From: a virus | Length of the DNA stretch: 29,047 nt | Direction: 5' to 3' (one strand) | Virus record (IMG/VR): IMGVR_UViG_3300036846_001176 | Span: 1 to 29,047 of that record | In this document: in pieces, positions 2,127 through 27,562 of the stretch | Numbering within the stretch: position 1 is the stretch's first letter | How the letters are laid out: every line of letters starts with the position of its first letter | The notes under the pieces: generated by a model | Told to the model about the DNA's origin: nothing | Database searches by the model: none | Seen by the model: only the letters and a program-made list of their open reading frames with translations | Program-made: the position numbers and the translations under genes

Positions 2127-2186
2127 GCCTTTCCGCCGGAGTACAGCCGGCTTCTCTGCCGGTCACCCGTCATGGGGCCGGGAGGC
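2127..2186 (-). promoter_or_regulatory. RBS-sequestering three-way-junction leader, copy 1 of 18
   Basis: Hairpin-GGCAGAGA-GCCGG(CUGUACU)CCGGC-GGAAAGGC immediately before ATG 2119. Confidence 0.75.
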
Positions 2187-2223: not shown

Positions 2224-2323
2224 GCCAAGGCGAGGCTGGGCAACGCCCGGCAAGGCACGGCATGGCGAGGCTTGACCTGGCAGGCCCGGCTGCCGCCTCT
2301 CGGATCTGCCTCCGAGAGGCGGC
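2224..2323 (+). ncRNA. GGC-NN guide-like small RNA A (1 unit, 11 NN)
   Basis: Pentamer array 2224-2278, then GGCA-GGCCCGGC, then perfect hairpin 2292-2323; TTGTCA at 2188. Confidence 0.8.
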
Positions 2324-3545: not shown

Positions 3546-3763
3546 GGGTCACCCTTCTGCAGGGCGCGCTCGTTCCAGCCCATCGCCCATGACAGGCGCT
3601 CGATGGTCGGCGTGCCGGCGGGGCCGTGGGGGTTCTCGTGGAACCCCTGGCGGCCACGGTGGGCGATGACGCCGTCCGCGAAGGCGTCGAGGTCGAGGTC
3701 GCGGACGGTCATCTCGCCCTTCTTGTTGAGCGCCTGATGGAAGGCGTCCTCGCTCTCGGTCAT
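3542..3763 (-). CDS. hypothetical protein
   Basis: ORF within the operon, GTGA coupling. Confidence 0.6.
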   Translation of the reverse strand: MTESEDAFHQALNKKGEMTVRDLDLDAFADGVIAHRGRQGFHENPHGPAGTPTIERLSWAMGWNERALQKGDP

Positions 3764-3791
3764 CGAGGGAACTCCGATAGTGGTCGCGGCA

Positions 3792-4043
3792 TCAGACGGT
3801 ACCCCCGCCCCACTCGCGGCCTGCCGCCAGTTCCTCGCGCAACCGCTCGATCGCCACCGAATAGACTTCCCCGGCGCGCATGACGTAGCGGCGTTCGCCG
3901 GTGTCAGGGTGCTCGAACTCCCAGAGCATGCCGGGCCGCGGCTCGCAGATCGTGAAGCCGAGCCGCTGCATCACCGAGAGGAACACCTGCTCGGCCATGG
4001 CGCCGCGGCGGGCCGCGCGGGCTGACGATGACATCATTGCCAT
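3792..4043 (-). CDS. hypothetical protein
   Basis: ORF directly downstream of ssb; start uncertain. Confidence 0.55.
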   Translation of the reverse strand: MAMMSSSARAARRGAMAEQVFLSVMQRLGFTICEPRPGMLWEFEHPDTGERRYVMRAGEVYSVAIERLREELAAGREWGGGTV

Positions 4044-4048
4044 ACCCG

Positions 4049-4684
4049 TCAGAACGGGATTTCGTCGTCAAGGTCCGCTGCGGCCTGCCGTGGGTTGCCC
4101 CAGGAGGGGCCTCTGCCGGTGCCATCGCCGGCAATGCTGCCCCCGCGAGGCTCGTCGCGGCCGGCACCGTTGGTCTCGCGCGGTGGAGCAGCGCGGCGGT
4201 CATCGCCCCGGCCACGGTCGCGGCCACGGTCGTCATCGCGGCCCCGGTCCCGGCCGCGGTCATCGCTGCGACCCCTGTCACGCCCTCGGTCGTCGTCGCG
4301 GCCACGGTCGCGGCCCCGATCGTCGCGGCCGTCGTCGCCGCGCGCGTCGAGCATCTGCAACTCGCCCCGGAAGCGCTGCAGCACGACCTCGGTCGTGTAG
4401 CGGTCAGCGCCGTCGCGGTCGGTCCACTTGCGGGTCTGCAGCGCGCCCTCGACGTAAACCTTGCTGCCCTTGCGCAGGTACTTTTCGGCGACGCCGCCGA
4501 GGTTCTCGTTCCAGATCACCACGTTATGCCACTCGGTGCGCTCCTGGCGGTCGCCTGAGCGATCCTTCCAGGTCTCGCTGGTGGCGAGGCGGAAGCTCAC
4601 CACCTTGTCGCCGTTGTTGGTCGAACGGACTTCCGGATCGGCGCCGAGGTTGCCAACGAGCGTCACCTTGTTGATGCCGGCCAT
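4049..4684 (-). CDS. ssb: single-stranded DNA-binding protein
   Basis: MAGINKVTLVGNLGADPE...TEWHNVV...KGSKVYVEG...; acidic tail LDDEIPF. Confidence 0.97.
   Translation of the reverse strand: MAGINKVTLVGNLGADPEVRSTNNGDKVVSFRLATSETWKDRSGDRQERTEWHNVVIWNENLGGVAEKYLRKGSKVYVEGALQTRKWTDRDGADRYTTEVVLQRFRGELQMLDARGDDGRDDRGRDRGRDDDRGRDRGRSDDRGRDRGRDDDRGRDRGRGDDRRAAPPRETNGAGRDEPRGGSIAGDGTGRGPSWGNPRQAAADLDDEIPF
4199..4325 (-). repeat. 30-bp coding tandem repeat (DDRGRDRGRx x4) in the SSB linker
   Basis: Visible in both DNA and translation. Confidence 0.85.
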
Positions 4685-4695
4685 GACGTTTCCTT

Positions 4696-5541
4696 TCAGG
4701 AGTTGAGCGAGGGGGGCTGGATCTGCCAGCGGCCTTCATAGGCGTCGGCCAGCCAGTGGTAAGTCGTGTCGCTGCACTGTCTGAGCATCGCGGCCTCATC
4801 GCGCCACAGCTTGTCGGCCTCGTCGCGGGTGTAGGCGCTGCTCATGCGCTCGGCGAAGGCGCGCACGCGGTCCTGGAAGTTGCCGGGGTTCTCGGGTGGC
4901 GCCCCGGGGTCGCGCGACGGCGGCTCGCCGGGCGGTGGGAACTCGCCATCGTCTGGTGGCGCGGCCTCGCGCGAGGGCATGTCGCCCGGGAAGTCGCTGG
5001 GCGGCGGGGGTGCCGATGGTGGGCGCATGTCGTCCGACGTGTCGTGGCCGTTGCCGCGCGGGGGTGGCTCGCGCACGTCCTCATCGCGTTCGATATCGTC
5101 AACGTCTGCGGGGATCTTGAAGAGTGCGATCTCGAATTGCTTCAATGCGGCCGTGAGGGTCTTATTCATTGCCTTATCGTCATAAGAACCTGCCCTGAAC
5201 TGGAACCGGCAGGAACCGGTGATAGAGCCGATGTTGAACACCGCTTCGCCATCGCAATGAGCGTCAAACTCGTACTTCACGAACAAAATGCCACCGAGCA
5301 CCGAGCGGGCCACCTCACGCGGCGACAGCACCAGCCGGTGCTTGATCATCGCATCCTGGATCTTTGCGGTGAGCACCGTCGCTTCGACGTAGTCGTACCT
5401 GTGCTCCTTGTTGCGGCCGGTCTTGGGGATCTTTGGGATGTCATGCATCACGCCGACAATCGCGGCGAAAACCTTGGGCGCACCCTCAGGTGGCATGAAG
5501 ACCGGCATACGGACGACGGCGGTTTCGGTCGTAACGCTCAT
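4696..5541 (-). CDS. ERF-family single-strand annealing protein
   Basis: IPKTGRNKEHRYDYV...DDKAMNKTLTAALK...LFKIP, Pro-rich linker, adjacent to ssb. Confidence 0.8.
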   Translation of the reverse strand: MSVTTETAVVRMPVFMPPEGAPKVFAAIVGVMHDIPKIPKTGRNKEHRYDYVEATVLTAKIQDAMIKHRLVLSPREVARSVLGGILFVKYEFDAHCDGEAVFNIGSITGSCRFQFRAGSYDDKAMNKTLTAALKQFEIALFKIPADVDDIERDEDVREPPPRGNGHDTSDDMRPPSAPPPPSDFPGDMPSREAAPPDDGEFPPPGEPPSRDPGAPPENPGNFQDRVRAFAERMSSAYTRDEADKLWRDEAAMLRQCSDTTYHWLADAYEGRWQIQPPSLNS

Positions 5542-5908
5542 GACACACCCCCAAACGACAGAACGCCGCACCCGGACCTTACGATCCGAATGCGGCGCCC
5601 AGGAGACCTCGAAGCCAGCCAATTAGCCAAGCCAGCGGCCAGAGAGCAATGCACCCCAACAAGGCGTAAGCGGCGGCCTGAGTAATCGCCTCGCCCACCC
5701 CTTCGCTGATTGACATCTTCCCCGGCCGCCGTCGACGTCGACCGGGCATAGCTACCCTCCATGGTCTCACGACACATATGGGTGTGCCGAGTTTTCACGG
5801 CGAGTGGGCGCGGCAAAGAAAGCTGGGGATAACCCGGGAACGACATCTGCCGACCTCCGATCAGGTGGTATGATCCTATCCCGATTTTCCCATCCCAGGC
5901 AAGAGGGC

Positions 5909-5947
5909 AAAATAAAAACCCCCGGGGCGCGCGGCCTCGGGGGTTTC
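5909..5947 (-). terminator. intrinsic terminator
   Basis: AAACCCCCG...CGGGGGTTT stem followed by a T-run on the minus strand. Confidence 0.7.
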
Positions 5948-5948
5948 C

Positions 5949-6698
5949 TCATAGCTCCTGGCGGATGCGCCAGCGGGCAACGCCAGGCACCGGCTCAGGG
6001 GTCTTGCCGGCAAGCCGGAGATCCCAGCGATCCGCCACGAAGCGTGGGGTCAGCCAGTAACTGAATTGCCTCTGCCGCAGGCTGTCACCGTGAAACACGG
6101 TGGCAGGCAGGCCTAGCAGCACCGCCTGGAGATATGTCATGTGCACGGCCGCGATGTCGATGTCGACCGCGGTGATGTGCAGTTGCTTGTGAGGGTCGAA
6201 GCCGGCCTCCTCGAAGGCCTGCGCGAACGCAAGCATCATGCCGCCGGCGCCGCATGCGGGCTCCATAAACGAGATGTAGCCCTGTGCCTTGACTTGTTCG
6301 CCCAACTTGTCGCGCGGCGCCATCGCCAGTCGTGCCATCATGTACGAGACCTGAAACGGGGTGTAGAACTGGCCAAGCCGCCCTTTCATTGCGTTGCTGC
6401 CCAGTTCCATCCGGGACATCAAGGTATGCAAAGGGGCCTCTCCCTTCGTCAGGGCAAGCGCCAGCATGGCAGTCATACTCGCCATGTCAGTGATCTCGTC
6501 CTCGGTGTAGCGCTTGGCTACCTCGACGTAGCGCAGTTCGCGCTCGGCGTACTGCGCGCGATCGCAGGTGTTGGCGTGGGCGATGGCCGCCAGCTCAAGC
6601 CAGTCGTAGAAGACCTGGTCGATGCGGTGGCGGTGGTCGAACGACTTCAACGTGTGCGCCAGCTTCTCCAGAGGCTGGCGCGCAGCGGAGTGGATCAT
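5949..6698 (-). CDS. N6-adenine DNA methyltransferase-like protein
   Basis: GQFYTP and EPACGAGGM (motif I), AVDID; no NPPY motif IV. Confidence 0.8.
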   Translation of the reverse strand: MIHSAARQPLEKLAHTLKSFDHRHRIDQVFYDWLELAAIAHANTCDRAQYAERELRYVEVAKRYTEDEITDMASMTAMLALALTKGEAPLHTLMSRMELGSNAMKGRLGQFYTPFQVSYMMARLAMAPRDKLGEQVKAQGYISFMEPACGAGGMMLAFAQAFEEAGFDPHKQLHITAVDIDIAAVHMTYLQAVLLGLPATVFHGDSLRQRQFSYWLTPRFVADRWDLRLAGKTPEPVPGVARWRIRQEL

Positions 6699-6767
6699 TG
6701 TGATTGCCTCTTCTGCCCGGGCTTGATTACCCGGAGCCTCGGCTCCTCTGCGGAGCACGAGGTTCGG

Positions 6768-6980: not shown

Positions 6981-7048
6981 AGCCGTGCTTTCTCCCGGAA
7001 ACAGCCGGGTTCTCTGCCGACCATCACAGTGATGGCCGAAAGCCGGGG

Positions 7049-7291: not shown

Positions 7292-7374
7292 CAGGGATCT
7301 TTCACCGGTGATCAGACCGGCTCTCTGCCGCTTGCGGTCAAGCGAGAGACGCCTGCGCTGTGCAGGCGTCCGGA

Positions 7375-7599: not shown

Positions 7600-7685
7600 A
7601 TATGGTGTTTCCTTGCGCCGGTATAAGCCGGCTCTCTGCCGCCCATCATGGGCGATAGGGCCCCGCCTTTCACGGGGCCGCGTGG

Positions 7686-8278: not shown

Positions 8279-8341
8279 GGATGCCTCCTAGCGCCGGCAA
8301 TCAGGCCGGCTCTCTGCCGCCCTTTAATGGGCGGTAGGAGA

Positions 8342-8978: not shown

Positions 8979-9077
8979 AGGGCCTCCCTTGCGCCGGTGA
9001 CAGCCGGCTCTCTGCCGCCCTGGCAGGGCGGTAGGGAGGGTCGCCCCACGGACGCTGTCCGCGGGGTCCCCAAGGGA

Positions 9078-9899
9078 TCACAGTCGCTCTGCGATCTCCT
9101 TGATGATGGTGGCGTTGTACCGCCGGACCTCCTGCTCGATCGTGCCGAGGTCAGGGAACATCTGTCGCAACTGACCGATCTGCTGATCGATATGCGCGAC
9201 GAGCTCCGTCTCGCCTTTGGCGGCGAAGCTCTCCCTGACCGTGGTGTGTTCGACCAGGGCCTTGGCGGCAAACGGGCGTAAGATAGCGCGGGGATGCCCC
9301 ATCGGGTCCCGCTCCAGTCCGCTGATCGCCTCGCGGCGGATCGATGTGCAGATGTCCTGGTAGGCAGCATAGAGCCGCCCGCCGGGCTGGATCACATCCT
9401 CATCGGGGATCAGTTTCCAACCGTCCTTTTCACGGTCCTTGACCACCCGTTCCTTGGAGACCCGCTCGATGTCAGCGAGCGTGTCGACCGAGGCCCATTG
9501 GAACACCTCGAGGTATTCCGGCGGGGATCGGTCCAAAAGCATATTTCCTAACGCATGCGCAACTTCTGCGCGGCCGACCATCTCCCCCGGCTTGCCGCCT
9601 CCGAAGGCGATCAAGGCACGTTGGTTGTAGGCGAGCCGCTCGACATCGTGCACGCGTTCGAAATGCCGTTGGTTGGGATCCGTCCGCCAGGCCACGAGGG
9701 GCCCGGCAAGGGCAGCGATCTGGTTATGACCAAGGGGTGCTGAGTGACCGAGCATGCTATGTAAATCTCTAAACATAGCAAGTGCAGGACCAGGGACACC
9801 AAAGCGAGCGCATTCGGCCAGCACTAACTGGAAGAAATCGCTCTGTGTAGCGGACAATGAAAGCGGGTTGCGGAGCATCTGTGCGATGTCCATTGCCAT
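9078..9899 (-). CDS. hypothetical protein (273 aa)
   Basis: Start MAMDIAQ after the leader motif; the ORF-track extension to 10085 runs through an ncRNA. Confidence 0.8.
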   Translation of the reverse strand: MAMDIAQMLRNPLSLSATQSDFFQLVLAECARFGVPGPALAMFRDLHSMLGHSAPLGHNQIAALAGPLVAWRTDPNQRHFERVHDVERLAYNQRALIAFGGGKPGEMVGRAEVAHALGNMLLDRSPPEYLEVFQWASVDTLADIERVSKERVVKDREKDGWKLIPDEDVIQPGGRLYAAYQDICTSIRREAISGLERDPMGHPRAILRPFAAKALVEHTTVRESFAAKGETELVAHIDQQIGQLRQMFPDLGTIEQEVRRYNATIIKEIAERL

Positions 9900-9986
9900 C
9901 GTGTGTCTTTCTGCCCGAGACAGCGGGCTCTCTGCCGACCACCACAATGATGGCCGAAAGACACGGATTACTTGATTGAATGGAGT

Positions 9987-10083
9987 GCAGGACCCGGAGT
10001 GGTACTCCTGGGTCCTGCGTCGCCGGGCCTGCCGCGCCATGCCTTGTTCGGCCGAGCCCTGTCCAGGCTCGCCATGCCCTGAC
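9987..10083 (-). ncRNA. GGC-NN guide-like small RNA B (1 unit, 10 NN)
   Basis: TTGCTT-16-TAGACT promoter (10117-10090), array, GGCA-GGCCCGGC, hairpin 9987-10018. Confidence 0.85.
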
Positions 10084-11333: not shown

Positions 11334-11790
11334 GCGATAGCCTAGTGCGGTGGGTTGGAATTTCGGATTGCCCGACGACAGAATTGGCGCTAGGGTCGGC
11401 GCCTTCCAAAAGGAGAAGGCCGGGAAGTAGGACCCCCCGGCCTTCGGTTTGGGAAGTTACGGTGTGAGGTTTCTGAGGCCATATCACACCGCGGAAGCGT
11501 CAGGGCTTGGTTGGTTGAGCAGTCCCTGTTGACGGCCGAGGATGTCGCGGCGTCGCCAGTTATATAAGCGTCGCAGAAACAACCGGCAAGCGCTTTCACG
11601 GTTCGGTCTACCTCCACACCGGGAAATTTTGTGTGACGGACTTCGATCCGTCATCTCGCGGTCGGGAGGAATATATTGTGAACACGCCGGTAACATCGAT
11701 TTCCTGCCAACCCGTTTCAAAGCTACGCGCAAAACTTGCCTACGGCGATGTGCTGCACAACCGGGAGTGCCGGTGGGGAGGGCCGCATGG

Positions 11791-12585
11791 ATGAGCGGGC
11801 GCCACGACGACGTCATGCGGATGGCGCAGGCGCTGGCCCGCAACGCCGGCTATGCCGTGTTCCCGGTGGGCGAGGACAAAAAGCCGTTCCCCCGCAGCCG
11901 GGGGTTCAAGGACGCCTCCAAGGATCCCGATGAGATCGCCGGGCTCTGGCGGCGCTGGCCGGGACCGCTGATCGGCATCGCCACCGGAGGGATCTCCAAC
12001 CGCATCGTGCTTGACCTCGACGCCAAGCACGACACCGCCCGCGCCTTCTGGCACACCTACCGCAAGCGCCTGCCCACCACCTTCTGCCAACGCACCAGGG
12101 GTGGCGGCTTTCACTTCTACTTCCGAGCCACCGCCCAGGTGCGCTGCTCCACCGGCCGCAACGATGCGGGCTTTCTCGGGGTCGATGTGCGGGGCGATGG
12201 CGGCTACGTCGTCAGCTGGCTCGCCGCCGGCTTTCCGGTTCTCTGCGAAGAACGCCCCACCGCATGGCCCGACTGGCTCACCGAGTTGGTGCAGCCGCGG
12301 CCGCCACCACCCCGGCGTGCCGAACCCTGGACCCCGCCCGAGCAGGCCTCCGCCGGCTTCGTGCGCGCCACCATCATCGGGTTGGTGCGATCCCTGGCCG
12401 AAACCAAGGAGGGCAACCGCAATGCCCACACCAACTGGAGCGCCTACCACCTGCGGGACCACATCCGCGCCGGTCACCTGACCCGCCGTGAGGCGGAGGC
12501 CGCCATCACCGAGGCCGCCCGCGCCACCGGGCTGCAAGACCGCGAGATCGCGCTCACCATCAACTCCGCCCTGAAGGGGGTGTGA
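11791..12585 (+). CDS. bifunctional DNA primase/polymerase (Prim-Pol N-terminal domain)
   Basis: YAVFPV...KKP...GFKDAS...IGIATG...VLDLD...TRGGGFHFYF...GVDVRGDGGYVV; C-terminal EGNRN. Confidence 0.92.
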   Translation: MSGRHDDVMRMAQALARNAGYAVFPVGEDKKPFPRSRGFKDASKDPDEIAGLWRRWPGPLIGIATGGISNRIVLDLDAKHDTARAFWHTYRKRLPTTFCQRTRGGGFHFYFRATAQVRCSTGRNDAGFLGVDVRGDGGYVVSWLAAGFPVLCEERPTAWPDWLTELVQPRPPPPRRAEPWTPPEQASAGFVRATIIGLVRSLAETKEGNRNAHTNWSAYHLRDHIRAGHLTRREAEAAITEAARATGLQDREIALTINSALKGV

Positions 12586-12586
12586 G

Positions 12587-13966
12587 ATGAGCGGCAATGG
12601 CGATGGCCATGGCAATGACCCGTACGACGATTTCGACGTGCCACCACCGTCGGAGGACTACCAGGAGGCCCATGGCTGGCGCGACGGCAAGCCGTCGCCG
12701 GAGACCGAGCGCGCCAAGGCCAAGCCCAACGGCAAGTACCATGGCCCTGAACCAGAGGGGGCGGACAAGGACGAGGTCCAACTCGACCAGATCTTCGAAT
12801 GGTCGGAAGACGCCTGGGACATCGCGGCCATTCCGCGCCGGCCATGGGTCGCACCGCCCTACCTCATGCGCCGCCAGATCACCCTGCTGCACGGGCCCGG
12901 CGGCGCCAGCAAGTCGCTGATCACCGTCTACTGGGCGATCGCGCTGGTGCTCGGCCGGCCATTCGGCCGGCTCGACCCGATCGGGCCGAAGCGGGTGCTG
13001 CTCGCCAACTTCGAGGATGACGAGGACGAACAGAAGCGCCGGATCAGCGCCGCCCTCGACTACTTCGGCGCCACCCCGGCCGATCTCGCCGGCAAGCTGC
13101 GCCGGGTCTATCTCGGCAAGAAGAGCGACGCGACCATGTTCACCCTGAGCCTGCTCGGCCAGGTGACCACCACCACGCCATGGGAGGCTTTCCTATGGCA
13201 TTGCAAGACCTTCCGCCCTGACGTTGTCAGCCTCGATCCGTTCATAGCGGTCAATGCCGCGGGCGAGAGCAACAATGAGGCGATGCGGCGGGTGATGACG
13301 ATCTTCCGCACCAGCATGCTGATGCCGTTCGAGTGCGCCTTTCTGCTCGCCCATCACGATGTCAAAGGCTCGGATGACGACACCGCCTCCGAGACCGCCA
13401 GCGCGCGCGGCGCCGGCGATATCACCAATGCCGTCCGCTTCGAGCTTGCGGTGCGCCGGATGACGTCTTCCCAGGCCGAGAGCTTCGGTATCGAGCCCGA
13501 CAAGCGCACGCCGTTCTTTCGGTTGGGCTCGGAGGACAGCAAGCGCAACTACGCCGCACCCGCTGCGGCCGAATGGTTCGAGCGCGACGAGCGCGACATC
13601 AACGAGGAGATGGTGGTGATCTGCCGGCCATGGGAGCCGCCCGATGGCCGGCTTGACCCGGATCAGGCTGCGGCGATCGAGGCCGACATCGCCAAGGGGT
13701 GGTCGAACGGCAAGGAGACCATGCCCTGGTCGCCGCTGCTAGGCGACAACACCCGATCGGTGGCAGCGTTGCTCGAGCGCCATGGGCTCATCACCCGGGC
13801 GACCCAACGGCAGGCACTGCGACAGCTCATGCGAAAGCACGGCGTGACCAAGGCGCCCTTCAGACGACCCGGCCATGGCACCAACGAGCGCAACGGCCTG
13901 CGCACGGCCAATGGCGATCCGCACAACTTTGAGTGGAAAGACCAGGATATGGAGGCTGGCGGATGA
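12587..13966 (+). CDS. AAA/RecA-like (RepA-type) replicative helicase
   Basis: Walker A GPGGASKS, NFEDD, VSLDP, LLAHHDVK, ARGAG; follows the primase. Confidence 0.9.
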   Translation: MSGNGDGHGNDPYDDFDVPPPSEDYQEAHGWRDGKPSPETERAKAKPNGKYHGPEPEGADKDEVQLDQIFEWSEDAWDIAAIPRRPWVAPPYLMRRQITLLHGPGGASKSLITVYWAIALVLGRPFGRLDPIGPKRVLLANFEDDEDEQKRRISAALDYFGATPADLAGKLRRVYLGKKSDATMFTLSLLGQVTTTTPWEAFLWHCKTFRPDVVSLDPFIAVNAAGESNNEAMRRVMTIFRTSMLMPFECAFLLAHHDVKGSDDDTASETASARGAGDITNAVRFELAVRRMTSSQAESFGIEPDKRTPFFRLGSEDSKRNYAAPAAAEWFERDERDINEEMVVICRPWEPPDGRLDPDQAAAIEADIAKGWSNGKETMPWSPLLGDNTRSVAALLERHGLITRATQRQALRQLMRKHGVTKAPFRRPGHGTNERNGLRTANGDPHNFEWKDQDMEAGG

Positions 13967-15556: not shown

Positions 15557-16972
15557 ATGTCCGACCGTTCAGACCGAGGCCGCAGCCCCACCGCGCAAGC
15601 CGCCCTCGCCCCCGAAGTCTCGCCCGACGGCGCCCGCATCAACACCCCCACGGGCTGGCTCATCGATGCCGACGGCAATCGGTTCTCCTTGGTCCGCACC
15701 GCCGACAAAGGCATGCAGATCCGCATCAACGCGTTCGTGGATCAGATCACGCAGTACGTCCTCGCCCTGCAGATGCAGGACGGCACCTGCTACCAGGAAA
15801 CCTCGACCTCCGGCTGGTACGTCTACGGCGGCGCGCCAGGCAACTGGACCAGCAGCCCTGCACCCCCCGGCAGTGGCGCTGGGGGTGGCGGCGGTGGTGG
15901 CGGCGGTGGCCCCACCCCGCCAGTCTCCGGCGGCCTCACCGTGCGCAATGGCCGTGTCGTCGACGACAAGGGCAACGACGTGCACCTGCGTGGGCCAAAT
16001 CTCAGGTTCATGAATTGGCCGGACAACCAGAACTCGGTGATGATGCATCCGATCGCCGATCGGCAGCGTTGCCTGCCGGTGCTCGACACCCTGCCCGGCA
16101 TGAACGTCGTCAGGTTCGATGCCTTCGAAAGTATGACCCAGTTCGACGCCGCATCGCCGCAGAACATCATTCCCTACATCGATGCCATCGTGAACAACGG
16201 CGTGTTCTGCGAGGTCGAGTGCCACATCTATCCCACCCTGCTGCAGGGCGGCGACCTCGAGCGCGTCTGCGGCTGGTACTCGCAACTCGCCCGCCACTAC
16301 AAAGACAATCCGAAAGTCATCTGGGGCACGCAGAATGAACCCGGCGGCGGGCCGGATGGTGAAATCAACCGGATCTACGATGCTATCCGAAACGAGGGCA
16401 ATCAGAATTTGATCCTGATGTGCCCGGAAGGCGGATGGTCGTGGTCGAACATGAACCCGGTCAACTACCAGCGCCTGCGCAATGTCGCTTGGGATTTCCA
16501 CTACTACGGCTGGATCCCCAACTATTCCATGGACCCCGCCGTCAACGATCAGGTCCTGCTCGACAACTACAACGGCTCGCTGCGCTTCCAGTCGGCCGAC
16601 GGCAACATCCCGATGTTCGTCGGCGAATTCAGTCCATGCGGCTTCCAGAACTCGAACGCGATTTTCGTGGAAAACGCCTTCTGGATGGACCCCAACGGCC
16701 TCTTGGTCATCGATAGCGTCTACCGCGCGCCGTTCCTCTCGGGTTGGATGCAATGGTTCTGGAATACCCCGGAGACCTCGGCCAGCAACGGGATCGGATT
16801 TTTGCTGAAACCGGATGGCAATTACAACGGCAGCGCCGTTACCGATCACGGCGGCAAGCAGATGGTCGAAGCGCTCCGCCGCGGCTCGCCGGCGGCCGCC
16901 TCGGCTAGCGCCCAAAGCGACGCCAGCGCCGCCGCCGTCGATCAGCGCCAGACCCAGACCAGGGGCCGCTAA
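15557..16972 (+). CDS. glycoside hydrolase family 5-like protein
   Basis: LTVRNGRVVD..G..VHLRGPN, GMNVVR, NEP (acid/base), FHYY, FVGEF (nucleophile); N-terminal domain plus Gly/Pro linker. Confidence 0.85.
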   Translation: MSDRSDRGRSPTAQAALAPEVSPDGARINTPTGWLIDADGNRFSLVRTADKGMQIRINAFVDQITQYVLALQMQDGTCYQETSTSGWYVYGGAPGNWTSSPAPPGSGAGGGGGGGGGGPTPPVSGGLTVRNGRVVDDKGNDVHLRGPNLRFMNWPDNQNSVMMHPIADRQRCLPVLDTLPGMNVVRFDAFESMTQFDAASPQNIIPYIDAIVNNGVFCEVECHIYPTLLQGGDLERVCGWYSQLARHYKDNPKVIWGTQNEPGGGPDGEINRIYDAIRNEGNQNLILMCPEGGWSWSNMNPVNYQRLRNVAWDFHYYGWIPNYSMDPAVNDQVLLDNYNGSLRFQSADGNIPMFVGEFSPCGFQNSNAIFVENAFWMDPNGLLVIDSVYRAPFLSGWMQWFWNTPETSASNGIGFLLKPDGNYNGSAVTDHGGKQMVEALRRGSPAAASASAQSDASAAAVDQRQTQTRGR

Positions 16973-20054: not shown

Positions 20055-20584
20055 TGCTAGGCTCGTCTAGGCATGTCCTGGCTCGGCAAGGCGTGGCAGG
20101 GCAGGCAGCGCACGGCGGGGCTTGGCCCGGCAACGCAGGGCTCGGCATGGCAGGCACGGCTAGGCTCGGCATGTCAGGGCGCGCCTAGGCATGGCGGGGC
20201 AGGCGGGGCTGGGCTCGGCGAGGCACGTCGCGGCGAGGCTGGGCTCGGCAGGCACGGTTAGGCTTGCCACGGCCAGCCGCGGCACGGCACGGCAGGCTAG
20301 GCTCGGCAACGCGAGGCGCGACGAGGCGCGGCATGGCAGGCGAGGCTTGGCGTGGCTAGGCGCGACAGGGCCCGGCACGGCAGGCTAGGCGCGCCAAGGC
20401 AAGGCAGGGCGCGGCGTGCCCAGGCTCGGCTAGGCAAGGCAGGCGCGCCCTGGCACGGCAAGGCGCGGCGCGCCCAGGCTCGGCTAGGCAGGCAAGGCTT
20501 GGCCTGGCACGACGGGGCTGGGCGCGGCATGGCAGGGCACGGCCGGCACAGCGTTTCGGCAACGGTTCACCGGTCCGGAAACGC
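20055..20584 (+). ncRNA. long GGC-NN guide-like array (10 units)
   Basis: Pentamers punctuated by GGCA at 20100, 20149, 20198, 20247, 20291, 20335, 20379, 20438, 20487 and GGCC at 20541; TTGACG at 20020; 3' hairpin containing ACGGTTCACCGG. Confidence 0.9.
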
Positions 20585-21964: not shown

Positions 21965-22030
21965 GGATCTGCCTTTCGCGCCCAATGGCAGGGGCGTTCT
22001 CTGCCCCACGCCATTATGACGTGGGAAAGG

Positions 22031-22474
22031 TCAGGGTCGTTTTTCGGTCCAGGTCTTGAACTCGCGGAGCTGCTCGGGATCGAGCCAGTCCCAGCGTCCC
22101 TCGAAGCGGATCGCGCGGTCGTCGATCGTCAGGAAGGCGGGAGGTTTCTGGTTGGTAAACTCCAGGAGAATGAGATCTGCCCGGCGTGCGTGCAGCAGCC
22201 GCAGGAACGGTGAAGCTTCGCTCGGAAAATCGGTAATTTGCCAGCCTTCCTGGAAGGCGTGTCCACCGATCCAGACTGCCATTTCTTTGATGCTGTCCGG
22301 GTCTTTCGAGCGTGAGCTGTAAACGACCAGGCGGAAGTGCTTGCCGGCCTTGTGGGCCCAATCGAGAAACCCTGGCGTCACGGTGCCGTAGAGCTCGCCG
22401 TTCTGCCAGCCTCGCTCATAGCTGTGGATTACGCCATCAAAGTCGAGACAGATGACCGGACGATCGCTTGGCAT
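22031..22474 (-). CDS. HAD-superfamily phosphatase-like protein
   Basis: ICLDFDGVIH, YSSR, KPPA..TIDDRA. Confidence 0.85.
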   Translation of the reverse strand: MPSDRPVICLDFDGVIHSYERGWQNGELYGTVTPGFLDWAHKAGKHFRLVVYSSRSKDPDSIKEMAVWIGGHAFQEGWQITDFPSEASPFLRLLHARRADLILLEFTNQKPPAFLTIDDRAIRFEGRWDWLDPEQLREFKTWTEKRP

Positions 22475-22527
22475 GGCGTGGCCTTTCGTGCCGTTGACGG
22501 ACGATGAAAACACTGCACATTATCTTG

Positions 22528-22682
22528 GACCAGGCTCGGCATGGCAAGTTCCGGCTCGGCGTGGCAGGGAGTGGCCCGGCTAGGCACGGCAGGCGTGGCG
22601 GGGCCTGGCTCGTCCGGGCAAGGCACGGCGTGGCGCGGCCGGCACGGCAAGCCCCGCGGCAACGGTTCACCGGCCGCGGGGC
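22528..22682 (+). ncRNA. GGC-NN guide-like small RNA C (2 units, 12 + 9 NN)
   Basis: TTGACG at 22494; GGCA at 22588; GGCC at 22637; hairpin 22651-22682 with ACGGTTCACCGG. Confidence 0.85.
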
Positions 22683-22689
22683 ACCTCCC

Positions 22690-22899
22690 TTAGAACGCTA
22701 GCAGCAGCAACTGCTCGGCGCCGTACACGGAACGTTGGCCACACGCCTCGCACTTGTAGCGCTCGGCATCCGGTTCACAACCTTCCGCGTCGGCGCCGCA
22801 ATCGATGCAAAAACCTGGATTGTCCAGGTCCAGCAAACCTTGCTCAGCCGCCTGCTGGACGCGTTCCTGGGTCAGGCTCGGGTGGAGTTTCAGTGCCAT
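22690..22899 (-). CDS. small zinc-ribbon protein
   Basis: GFCIDCG...EPDA..YKCEACG...VYGAE. Confidence 0.8.
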   Translation of the reverse strand: MALKLHPSLTQERVQQAAEQGLLDLDNPGFCIDCGADAEGCEPDAERYKCEACGQRSVYGAEQLLLLAF

Positions 22900-23002
22900 G
22901 TGGTGGCCTTTCGCCGGAGTACAGCCGGCTCTCTGCCGTGCTGCGTTGGTGCAGCACGAAAGGCGGGTTGACAGCTTTCGTAAATATAGAACATGATGAT
23001 GT

Positions 23003-23105
23003 GTCCTCGCCTGGCGAGGCAAGGCCTGTCCGGGCCAGACGCGGCGCGACTTGGCACGGCGCGGCAGGCTTGAGGAACCCCGCAGCTGTAGCCGCGGGGT
23101 TCTTC
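23003..23105 (+). ncRNA. GGC-NN guide-like small RNA D (1 unit, 12 NN)
   Basis: TTGACA-18-CATGAT (22968-22997), array, GGCA at 23063, hairpin 23072-23105. Confidence 0.85.
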
Positions 23106-23115
23106 GTTTGCGCGG

Positions 23116-23583
23116 TCAGCCGTGAAACGCTGCGTGGCGCAATTTTTCTAACAGACCTTCGGCGATTTGCGCTGTCAGCGCGGGGCATTCGCTGGTGGTC
23201 GCGTTCATGAGCAGCTTGGCCAGGACCTTGGCCTCGACCTCGGTGACCGGGAGCATGGTCGTGAGGTAGACTGGCGGCTCGATGGTGACCTGGCCGGCGA
23301 ACAAATAGTCCTCGGCGCCTGCATCTTCAGGCTTCATGCCTGATGCGTTGTCGAAGCAGTTTTCCAACACGCAATCAGCGGCCTCCGCCAACTCAGGCGA
23401 GAGCTCGATCGAGAGCGGCCAGGTGGCCGTGTCGGTCGCGTTGCCGATCAGTGTCTGGAGGTCATCGAGGTGCAGGGCGCGGTCGGCTTCTCCGTTGTCC
23501 GCCGCGACCTCGCTCATGCCTTCGGCCATGGAGCAGAACACCTTTGCGGCGCGAAGATCGGCGATCGTTAAGCTGTGGCTCAT
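23116..23583 (-). CDS. hypothetical protein (MSHSLT...)
   Basis: ATGA coupling with 23580-23774. Confidence 0.75.
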   Translation of the reverse strand: MSHSLTIADLRAAKVFCSMAEGMSEVAADNGEADRALHLDDLQTLIGNATDTATWPLSIELSPELAEAADCVLENCFDNASGMKPEDAGAEDYLFAGQVTIEPPVYLTTMLPVTEVEAKVLAKLLMNATTSECPALTAQIAEGLLEKLRHAAFHG

Positions 23584-23780: not shown

Positions 23781-23838
23781 GCCTTTCGCCGGAGACAGCC
23801 GGCTCTCTGCCGTGGCGCGTTGGTGCGACACGAAAGGC
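23781..23838 (-). promoter_or_regulatory. RBS-sequestering leader, clearest copy
   Basis: GCCUUUC-[GUGUCGCACCAACGCGCCAC]-GGCAGAGA-[GCCGGCUGUCUCCGGC]-GAAAGGC-N6-AUG. Confidence 0.85.
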
Positions 23839-24708: not shown

Positions 24709-24792
24709 GCTATGGCATGGCTTGGCAACGCCGGCCATGGCACGGCAGGGCAGGCATGGCATCCCGCGGCGACGGTTCACCGGCCGCGGGGT
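24709..24792 (+). ncRNA. GGC-NN guide-like small RNA E (1 unit, 7-8 NN)
   Basis: TTGACG-18-TACAAT (24674-24703); GGCA at 24749; hairpin with ACGGTTCACCGG. Confidence 0.8.
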
Positions 24793-24863
24793 CACTCTGT
24801 GCTTTCACGCCCGAACAGGGGCGTTCTCTGCCCTCCGGCGTTGGTGCTGGAGGAAAGCCACCC

Positions 24864-25629: not shown

Positions 25630-25704
25630 GGTTGGTGCCTTTCGCATCCATGAGTAGGGATGCTTTCTACCCGCCAGCGTTGGTGCTGGCGGAAAGGCGC
25701 CCGC

Positions 25705-25932
25705 TTATTCAGCGGGCCGTAGTTTGCGATCCTCCGTTTCGATCACATTGGCCATAAGCCGGTTGGCTTCGGCCACCCCGGCATTCCACGCGTCCTGTCG
25801 CGTTGGATGCAGGCCAGGCATGTAATGGCCGATGGCTCGGGTGCGGGGATTGCTTAATGAAACAACAACGATGAAGCCTTCGCCGCGCCGCTCGACGCGG
25901 ATCGTGGCAACCAGGCTGTCGGTATCGCTCAT
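25705..25932 (-). CDS. hypothetical protein
   Basis: Leader motif upstream. Confidence 0.7.
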   Translation of the reverse strand: MSDTDSLVATIRVERRGEGFIVVVSLSNPRTRAIGHYMPGLHPTRQDAWNAGVAEANRLMANVIETEDRKLRPAE

Positions 25933-26005
25933 GGTGTTTCCTTTCACGACCAGACAGGGTCGCTCTCTGCCACGCAGCGTTGGTGCTGCGTGAAAGGCGC
26001 CCGCG

Positions 26006-26245
26006 CTAGGCGGGCTGGTCGTCGGTAAATTCGGCCTCCCAGCTTGACGCGGCGAGATAGGACAGACGTGCCCCCGCAATCGCGAGGTCTCTGTTGGCCA
26101 TCTTCGTCGAGAAAAGAATGATGTGACCGGTATCGTGGTCGACTATGCAAATGACGACGCCGGCGTTTGTCGGCACCTCCGCGACGGCGCTCTCAAGCAG
26201 ATGCTTGGGGCTCGTCCATTTGCCGCGGATGGGTTCAACACTCAT
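26006..26245 (-). CDS. hypothetical protein
   Basis: Leader motif upstream. Confidence 0.7.
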   Translation of the reverse strand: MSVEPIRGKWTSPKHLLESAVAEVPTNAGVVICIVDHDTGHIILFSTKMANRDLAIAGARLSYLAASSWEAEFTDDQPA

Positions 26246-26477
26246 AGTGTTTCCTTTCACGACCAGACAGGGTCGATCTCTGCCCCTCAGCGTTGATGCG
26301 AGGGATAGGCGCCACGCCCGTTTCAGTCCGCTGTGCGGAGTACTTCGGTGCGTGGCACTTGCTACATGTAATAATCAGCGACCAAGCAACCGGCGATGAG
26401 CACCCAGGCCCACCACGGAAAACTTAGCGCGGTTGCGAAGAAGACCATCTGGTCCTCCTTTCGCTTGAGGTGAAATG

Positions 26478-27039: not shown

Positions 27040-27447
27040 TCAGTGCCCGTTCGACGCGTGATAAAGGTTGCGCAGTGCGCAGCGCAGCCGAAAACGCTGT
27101 TCTGCAGGCACAGCCTCGTTGAGGGTGAGGTTGATGGCGCTGCGGAATGCGTCTCTCCTGGTTCGCAGGAATTCGATGATGTCCACGGGGAAATCATCCT
27201 CGGCCAGCAGGGCGCACAGCACAGTGTCATTGCGTGCGTTGCGCGCTTTCCGCGTCGAGCGGATGTTGTTGATAACCGCGCGACCTTCCTCCTGCGCCAG
27301 CTGGTAGCCGGCGGTGATCACGATGGCTGCTCCGACAATTCCGGCGGCTTTCGCCATATTGCCGAGCGTCGGTGCCATCGCTGACCTTGAGGAGCTGTAA
27401 AGCCCGCTCGAAGGGTGTCGCAACGTATCCTGCATGGTAAAGCTCAT
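27040..27447 (-). CDS. hypothetical protein
   Basis: Leader motif upstream. Confidence 0.65.
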   Translation of the reverse strand: MSFTMQDTLRHPSSGLYSSSRSAMAPTLGNMAKAAGIVGAAIVITAGYQLAQEEGRAVINNIRSTRKARNARNDTVLCALLAEDDFPVDIIEFLRTRRDAFRSAINLTLNEAVPAEQRFRLRCALRNLYHASNGH

Positions 27448-27562
27448 TGAGCTTTCCTTCCTTTCACCGGAGACAGCCGGTTCTCTGCCGTGCCGCGGGG
27501 ATCGCGACACGAAAGGATGTGGGGTTGGTTGAATGGGCCTCGGCCTGGACCGAGGCCACCAT

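Follow-up and report, generated by a model that had tools for sequence, protein, structure and literature searches.

A stand-alone VIPR guide linked to a mismatched allele of its putative target gene in a soil phage

VIPR guides (vrRNAs) are composed of GGY/NN pentamers in 9-16 repeats and pair with either strand of the target, skipping one base at the wobble position (10.64898/2026.04.26.720920). The effector, Vipr, binds double-stranded DNA on either strand without a PAM and silences it (10.64898/2026.04.26.720920). According to the available texts, the type examples are phage SUSP1 and a P. fulva prophage (10.64898/2026.04.26.720920, 10.64898/2026.04.26.720927), structures of Vipr have been published (10.64898/2026.04.26.720927) and arrays can be detected by their periodicity (10.64898/2026.10.21.760802). 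The published guides flank vipr and are aimed at satellites, prophages and other VIPR loci; where tested, no self-match reached 80% (10.64898/2026.04.26.720920). Stand-alone guides away from vipr are described, in the available text of the competition paper, for F5 satellites and VIPR-null SUSP1-like phages. These solo elements lack vipr and borrow it, their targets being REP elements, vipr, vrRNAs and satellites, and guides aimed at vrRNAs match rivals better than their own locus (10.64898/2026.10.15.759431).

Two further systems bear a resemblance. The free-standing homing endonucleases of T4 (segA, segE, segF, segG, mobE) are intergenic, attack the rival allele of a conserved neighbour while their own is spared, and bring about intronless homing and marker exclusion, according to the available part of the source (PMC2988022). 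Virus-borne mini-CRISPR arrays hold one or two guides behind their own leader, aimed at kin viruses of the same population; they differ from VIPR in having contiguous spacers and a host Cas effector, and linkage to a resistant allele is unmentioned in the available text (PMC6858448).

Here we analyse a guide in a soil phage (G000) with a genome of 104,559 nt. The window, the whole stretch of DNA that was analysed, is its first 29,047 nt. The system shares with SUSP1 and the P. fulva prophage the pentamer guides, the wobble skip, the 3' tail, a RAMP-fold Vipr with one accessory gene, and staggered units with a one-base overlap. Unlike the published guides, those of this phage are scattered genome-wide, and next to each lies the phage's own copy of the target gene, which matches at 68-85%. 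Unlike the published solo elements, they coexist with the phage's own vipr and are aimed at ordinary neighbouring phage genes. By the published definition, vipr is missing from the contig of a solo vrRNA or from the 20 kb around it; here vipr lies about 9 kb off, and the guides stand alone in layout only. They are intergenic and within co-conversion distance of a conserved neighbouring target, as homing elements are, but no site-specific nuclease is encoded. In the T4 elements, by the available account, a DNA-cutting protein gives the specificity (PMC2988022), whereas here it resides in a guide of ~150 nt, and a single effector without a recognised nuclease works with all the guides.

The VIPR code and system are thus already known, while the linked layout of guide and mismatched allele and the sign of escape in a sister strain appear to be new. 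The layout was not found in the VIPR preprint texts, although their supplementary target tables may list such cases. The available parts of those preprints make no mention of homing, and the competition paper (10.64898/2026.10.15.759431) contains, in its available text, no wording on alleles, gene conversion or linkage.

The guide tract and the Vipr locus

The guide tract and the Vipr locus contain the following features, in window positions unless marked as genome positions:

22494..22523 (+), predicted sigma-70-like promoter, immediately 5' of the guide
22519..22547 (-), predicted opposing promoter-like site, overlapping the 5' end of the guide
22531..22590 (+), vrRNA unit 1, 12 NN-GGY repeats in a five-base register, dinucleotides at 22531-22587
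22590..22639 (+), vrRNA unit 2, 10 repeats, one-base overlap with unit 1 (staggered array)
22651..22682 (+), 3' tail hairpin, z -2.69, equalled in 2/200 shuffles
Genome 30053-32310, vipr-vap-array locus, outside the window, with Vipr about 9 kb from the guide
Genome 31465-32310 (-), vipr gene

The fixed triplets are canonical in 10 of 12 repeats of unit 1 and 9 of 10 repeats of unit 2. Three promoter-like sites were found in 22000-23200, compared with 0.2 in shuffled sequence; another of them stands before the next solo guide, and the opposing site at 22519..22547 (-) may be the driver of the HAD-like gene, as a prediction. The loop motif of the tail hairpin (22651-22682) is seen again behind four arrays of the phage. 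An Rfam search returned no match close to the gathering score.

The family profile of Vipr matches the SUSP1 protein (PDB 36pp, E 1.6e-4) over the thumb and G-loop, and a structure model (pLDDT 79) resembles Csm and type VII RAMP chains, with a best E of 6.5e-5 and a TM of 0.3-0.4. The accessory gene (vap) is a coupled ORF of 169-177 aa between vipr and the main array of 17 units. It has a 68% counterpart in the nearest Vipr relative (G001), a phage genome of 102,563 nt with a Vipr 66-70% identical and the same guide layout. No nuclease was recognised in Vipr or in the accessory gene, and tyrosine and serine integrases found no match in the studied phage. The locus thus combines an NN/GGY guide of 9-16 repeats, a one-base skip that falls on the wobble base on either strand, a structured 3' tail, a RAMP-fold Vipr with thumb and G-loop, and an adjacent vap. 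On these sequence features the tract is a VIPR guide gene (vrRNA), correctly decoded.

One main-array unit is nearly identical in both phages (G000 30671-30612, minus strand; G001 27417-27481, plus strand). Its antisense decoding, P-F/L-D/E-L-V-Y-A-D/E-P-P-W, resembles the DPPW motif known from DNA adenine methyltransferases. The two phages also have most of a second unit in common (G000 30612, G001 27871). The first main-array unit of G001 (27304-27363) matches that phage's own accessory gene at 17/24 and that of the studied phage at 16/24.

Unit 1 and the adjacent HAD-like gene

Two features define the match of unit 1:

22031..22474 (-), HAD-like gene, 147 aa, divergent from the guide and carrying the near-matched site
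22359..22393 (+), footprint of unit 1, codons 28-39 of the HAD-like gene, 19/24 read bases matching, a divergence hot spot relative to the sister strain

The first-pass annotation had paired the dinucleotides of unit 1 with the plus strand at 22359-22393, at 19 of 24 bases with one base skipped. The pairing is exact and follows the published one-base-skip code of VIPR, a name that the annotation does not give. With this skip the site ranks first on both strands of the 104,559-nt genome, ahead of a runner-up at 16/24. Skips of 0 and 2 bases gave top sites elsewhere, at 17 and 16 of 24. The guide lies 136 nt from the site, and each skip falls on the wobble position of codons 28-39 in the ORF at 22031-22474 (-). 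Translation reproduces both the peptide that had been read from the guide, VYGTLT(D/E)GF(I/M)(D/E)W, and that of the phage's own allele. The decoded unit holds the near-invariant Y, G, G, F and W of the family in frame.

Within 1 kb, a score of 19 was reached by 0/3000 order shuffles and 0/3000 base shuffles, and genome-wide by 2/400. When the first CA is dropped, the score becomes 17/22, equalled by 1/3000 local and 15/400 genome-wide shuffles. The significance therefore leans largely on adjacency.

Unit 2 had been described as lacking a convincing match, which agrees with our searches: the best site scores 12/20 nearby (p 1.0), 15/20 genome-wide and 16/20 across 3.05 Mb of fetched loci, and its exact 18-base pattern has 0 matches in IMG/VR. 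The sense decoding of unit 2 is V-G-L-S-R-K/N-T-V-A, similar to a helix-turn-helix recognition helix.

Support for the HAD assignment is weak from Pfam (HAD_SAK_2, E 3e-5, 24.8 bits against a cut-off of 27.5) and clearer from PHROGs (phrog_1238, E 4.5e-10). The gene has 2215 homologues, of which the nearest beyond its own cluster is 58% identical among the matches listed. Homologues listed and scored against the guide numbered 120 of 2215 and 150 of 4644. Alleles closer to the guide than the phage's own do exist, in keeping with the rival allele that the first-pass annotation had read from it. They account for 6/119 of the nearest homologues listed and for 9/35 in a search seeded on one of the closer homologues, each with scores of 20-21 of 24. 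Among distant representatives listed the own allele is exceeded by 2/148, among viral loci by 1/79 and in another locus set by 0/25. The best score among the homologues scored is 21/24 (88%), in proteins only 50-55% identical. The commonest family peptide among the homologues listed is likewise at 19/24, so the homologue scores alone are no proof that the own allele has escaped.

The perfect gapped DNA match that the predicted allele would provide was not found: the exact 22-base pattern has 0 matches in IMG/VR and metagenome contigs. The exact target was not found in three collections, and no allele above 21/24 was found among the homologues scored. A relaxed 18-base pattern of unit 1 gave 4 metagenome, 1 IMG/VR and 4 GTDB matches, none of them inside a HAD gene. 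A guide within 3 kb of other HAD genes was found in 0/25 and 0/79 IMG/VR HAD loci, and the HAD gene was found in 0/1 and 0/24 Vipr-bearing records.

The 90% cluster of the own protein includes a second allele (P0424, P0426). It differs at 5/12 footprint codons compared with 7/135 elsewhere (p 0.0009), the 7 including 2 of the 3 codons next to the footprint. Contigs of this sister strain, at depth 5.9 and 3.7, come from runs X2 and X3 of two studies that have year and habitat in common. They cover 22325-22690, the gene start and the guide, unbroken and show identical differences. The sister strain, about 92% identical to the studied phage otherwise, differs at 11/35 footprint bases compared with 9/331 around them (Fisher p 1e-7), a count in which two alignment gaps were re-read as substitutions, reproducing the P0426 peptide. 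The changes form a 42-nt patch that reaches 9 nt beyond the footprint, and one of them is silent. None of the 44 NN bases of units 1 and 2 is changed, the guide changes being confined to the fixed triplets. In the small gene after the guide (window 22690-22902) the sister strain is densely divergent, with 27/44 of the differences of the X3 contig.

The sister allele matches the guide at 18/24 and the own allele at 19/24. The two are 7 read bases apart and have a single identical mismatch in common; since their mismatches otherwise differ, the guide sits between them. A constant guide over the most variable site of the gene fits what two escapes from one guide would leave, judged from the one alternative allele that the sister evidence comprises.

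Solo guides and their neighbours

Further guides and arrays of the window are as follows:

23011..23065 (+), solo guide, 17/22 to a gene at a distance of 55 nt, site 23120-23151, p 0.0125
2227..2281 (+), solo guide, 16/22 to a DUF3085 gene 1.7 kb away, site 473-504, p 0.015
10026..10080 (-), degenerate solo guide with approximate bounds, 18/22 to the adjacent gene, site 9751-9782, next genomic best 14
20058..20543 (+), long staggered array of 10 units, nearby match with p <=0.05 in 1/10
24712..24751 (+), short solo guide with the same tail, neighbour match not significant (12/16, p 0.07)

In the studied phage and G001 together, 11 of 15 solo 5'-most units have a match within 2 kb (p <=0.05), compared with 3/48 units of long arrays (Fisher p 6e-7). 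The 15 include G001 35005, a mis-parsed fragment of a longer array that is kept as a miss, and leave out the degenerate guide at 10026..10080, which the automatic caller missed; the 3/48 are in line with the chance expectation at p 0.05 and are not taken as neighbour matches. Second units with a neighbour match were 0/2. About 35 units were screened in the studied genome. The solo guides lie 55 to 1721 nt from their sites. Among the neighbouring genes targeted are those for the terminase large subunit, a neck protein and a methylase-like protein.

At 19 neighbour sites, an open frame of at least 100 codons places the skip on the wobble base, and for 11 of them the orthologue confirms the frame. 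By the author's reading, 7 of these sites are sense and 12 antisense. This upholds the earlier remark that the strand is unconstrained and a dsDNA target therefore favoured, and it agrees with the dsDNA target published for VIPR.

Both the HAD gene and the unit 1 guide are missing from G001. Orthologues in the two phages are 55 to 93% identical where compared. The orthologous site of the other phage scores higher than the own site in 7 of 11 cases, equal in 1 and lower in 3, which is not significant (sign test p 0.18 to 0.34); the own sites were chosen as local maxima, a bias against finding the orthologue better. In G001, one guide forms an insert of about 140 nt that separates two neck and tail genes; in the studied phage these genes are 3 nt apart. 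This neck-gene guide matches the guide-free allele of the studied phage at 21/22 and its own at 18/22. Two of its 4 self-mismatches (G001 91599-91630) are swaps between the two leucine codon families; as read from the codons, such a swap is a silent change at a read base, a way round wobble-skipping. At two loci both phages keep a guide, each aimed at a different site of the same neighbour gene. Footprint divergence between the studied phage and G001 shows no clear excess over the flanks, two of which are out of register.

Thirteen further Vipr-bearing records were examined, 8 of them fetched in part. Here 4/14 dispersed guides pass p 0.05, compared with 0/14 without a skip and 1/14 with two bases skipped; guides near vipr pass in 6/89. 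In G002, G007, G008 and G018, the best or tied-best genomic site of 5/5 dispersed guides is the neighbouring one, while G012 has a neighbour match for 0/9. Neighbour matches in 20-kb Vipr loci were seen for 5/24 single units, 1/37 units in pairs and 10/313 in longer arrays. A tail-motif scan returned 121 loci, with arrays in one only, the G001 record. The guide-beside-target layout is recurrent, not universal. In G012 3688-5394, six single units without a neighbour match are spaced at 200-500 nt far from vipr, perhaps a ribozyme-spaced array.

Readings of the layout

We consider it probable, from the sequences compared, that the stand-alone guide and the linked, mismatched and predictedly resistant allele form a cassette aimed at close kin. 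The guide would be transcribed from its own promoter and is likely loaded by the phage's own Vipr. Vipr would then bind the DNA of kin that bear a matching HAD allele and block transcription there, as published for SUSP1. The own copy would be spared by the 5 mismatches among 24 read bases, on the assumption that 19/24 confers resistance. Since VIPR uses no PAM, only sequence difference would protect self, and a guide could therefore outlast recombination with kin only if it is linked to a mismatched allele. A recombinant that gained the guide without the allele would silence itself, and for this reason guide and resistant allele would stay adjacent and be passed on together as a cassette. The guide most likely has its true target in an allele of this phage population, and the two known strains would have departed from that allele by different routes. 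The benefit of such a cassette is doubtful in one respect, because a rival whose gene was silenced in a mixed infection could be complemented by the copy of the guide-bearer. A version in which the guide gives prophage immunity is weakened by the lack of an integrase match.

An effect on the rival's DNA would remove the complementation problem, which makes RNA-guided homing the first rival explanation. Vipr on the rival allele would cause a break or a stalled fork, and repair would copy in the resistant allele together with the nearby guide. This would account for the targeting of essential genes (terminase, neck) despite complementation. The distances of 55 to 1721 nt are within the range of free-standing endonucleases, hundreds to thousands of bp in the available part of the source (PMC2988022). 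The clean insert in G001 adjoins a gene whose guide-free allele matches better, and in a post hoc split the orthologue is better in 6/6 cases where the other phage has no detected guide and in 1/5 where it has one. The sister's 42-nt patch with its silent change is what a short conversion tract would leave, and the genome carries ERF, SSB and Gam-like recombination genes. Nevertheless, we regard homing as unlikely: the published activity of VIPR is binding and silencing, Vipr and its accessory gene have no recognised nuclease, and plain selection for linkage explains the adjacency without drive. Taken by analogy one step further, and with the same reserve, VIPR might act as an RNA-guided allele drive, with a shared effector and many scattered 150-nt guide cassettes that each attack the alleles of their neighbour gene in kin, spread with the linked resistant allele by gene conversion and drive amino-acid change in phage genes. 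If true, this would be an RNA-programmed counterpart of intronless homing.

That the guide represents a rival allele, as first annotated, holds under the cassette and the homing model alike. It is supported by the closer homologues and more strongly by the sister strain and the genome-wide pattern.

We find it improbable that the guides arose from, or were tuned on, nearby DNA, or that Vipr binding destabilises the site, so that the mismatches record escape from self-targeting with no rival involved. The position of the guide between the two sister alleles, as if it had once matched its own lineage, would suit such a local origin, as would the two loci where the guides of both phages hit different sites of the same neighbour gene; the acquisition of vrRNAs is not explained in the available VIPR preprint texts. 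However, a targetless guide should decay, yet 44/44 NN bases are conserved in the ~92% identical strain, and orthologues only 55 to 93% identical often match better than the own copy. We also know of no copying route that turns codons into pentamers.

Still less probable is autoregulation, in which partial pairing would lower expression of the phage's own neighbouring gene. CRISPR CreA-type regulatory RNAs are an analogue of regulation by partial pairing. The site is close to the gene start, 19/24 is barely below the published 80% cut for natural targets, and the own allele stands near the top of its family (exceeded by 2/148 listed and 1/79). The sister pattern agrees badly with a regulatory role, as far as the compared alleles indicate: the pairing is not conserved, since a fixed guide faces a site that amino-acid changes make the most variable stretch of the gene. 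A regulator would need neither a wobble skip nor a better match to the orthologue of another phage.

A chance match of a short gapped word, to which the 15/400 shuffles without the first dinucleotide and the roughly 35 units screened might point, is already refuted by the 0/3000 local shuffles, the near-invariant residues spelled in frame, the repetition in 11/15 solo guides and the footprint as a divergence hot spot.

Under the cassette reading, VIPR gains a target class and a layout: alleles of kin, with guide and shield linked. This bears on how RNA-guided systems without a PAM avoid self and on how new guides persist. The natural alleles at 19, 18 and 21 of 24 are ready material on the mismatch tolerance of VIPR, which the available preprint texts do not give. 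In the sister strain a wobble-skipping guide is accompanied by amino-acid change at the footprint, contrary to the published view that the targets of such guides can hardly escape.

Several other features of the genome were observed. The ends of the record overlap by 179 nt (178 identical), with the DUF3085 gene at the junction, and from this the record looks circular and complete. An element of ~60 nt, read on the minus strand, is repeated before many leftward genes and is also present in G001. It has no match in Rfam. In three copies that were folded, the ribosome-binding site is sequestered in an outer stem by pairing (z -4.1, -2.3, -1.1); the element is possibly a common translational or processing signal. 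Its copies in the window are:

21970-22030, 22911-22964, 23784-23838, 24802-24859, 25636-25698, 25928-25998, 26241-26309 and 27462-27516 (-), copies of the ~60-nt element
6988-7043, 7299-7330, 7611-7660, 8288-8319, 8987-9036, 9909-9960 and 2130-2161 (-), further copies

Window 4049-6758 (-) and 11542-13966 (+) hold SSB, ERF recombinase, N6 methylase-like, Prim-Pol and AAA_25 genes; in G001, a guide is aimed at the neighbouring orthologue of the methylase-like gene. G000 also has an HNH endonuclease gene near 79800-80295, and a glycoside hydrolase family 5 gene (Pfam Cellulase, E 3e-16) occupies window 15557-16972 (+).
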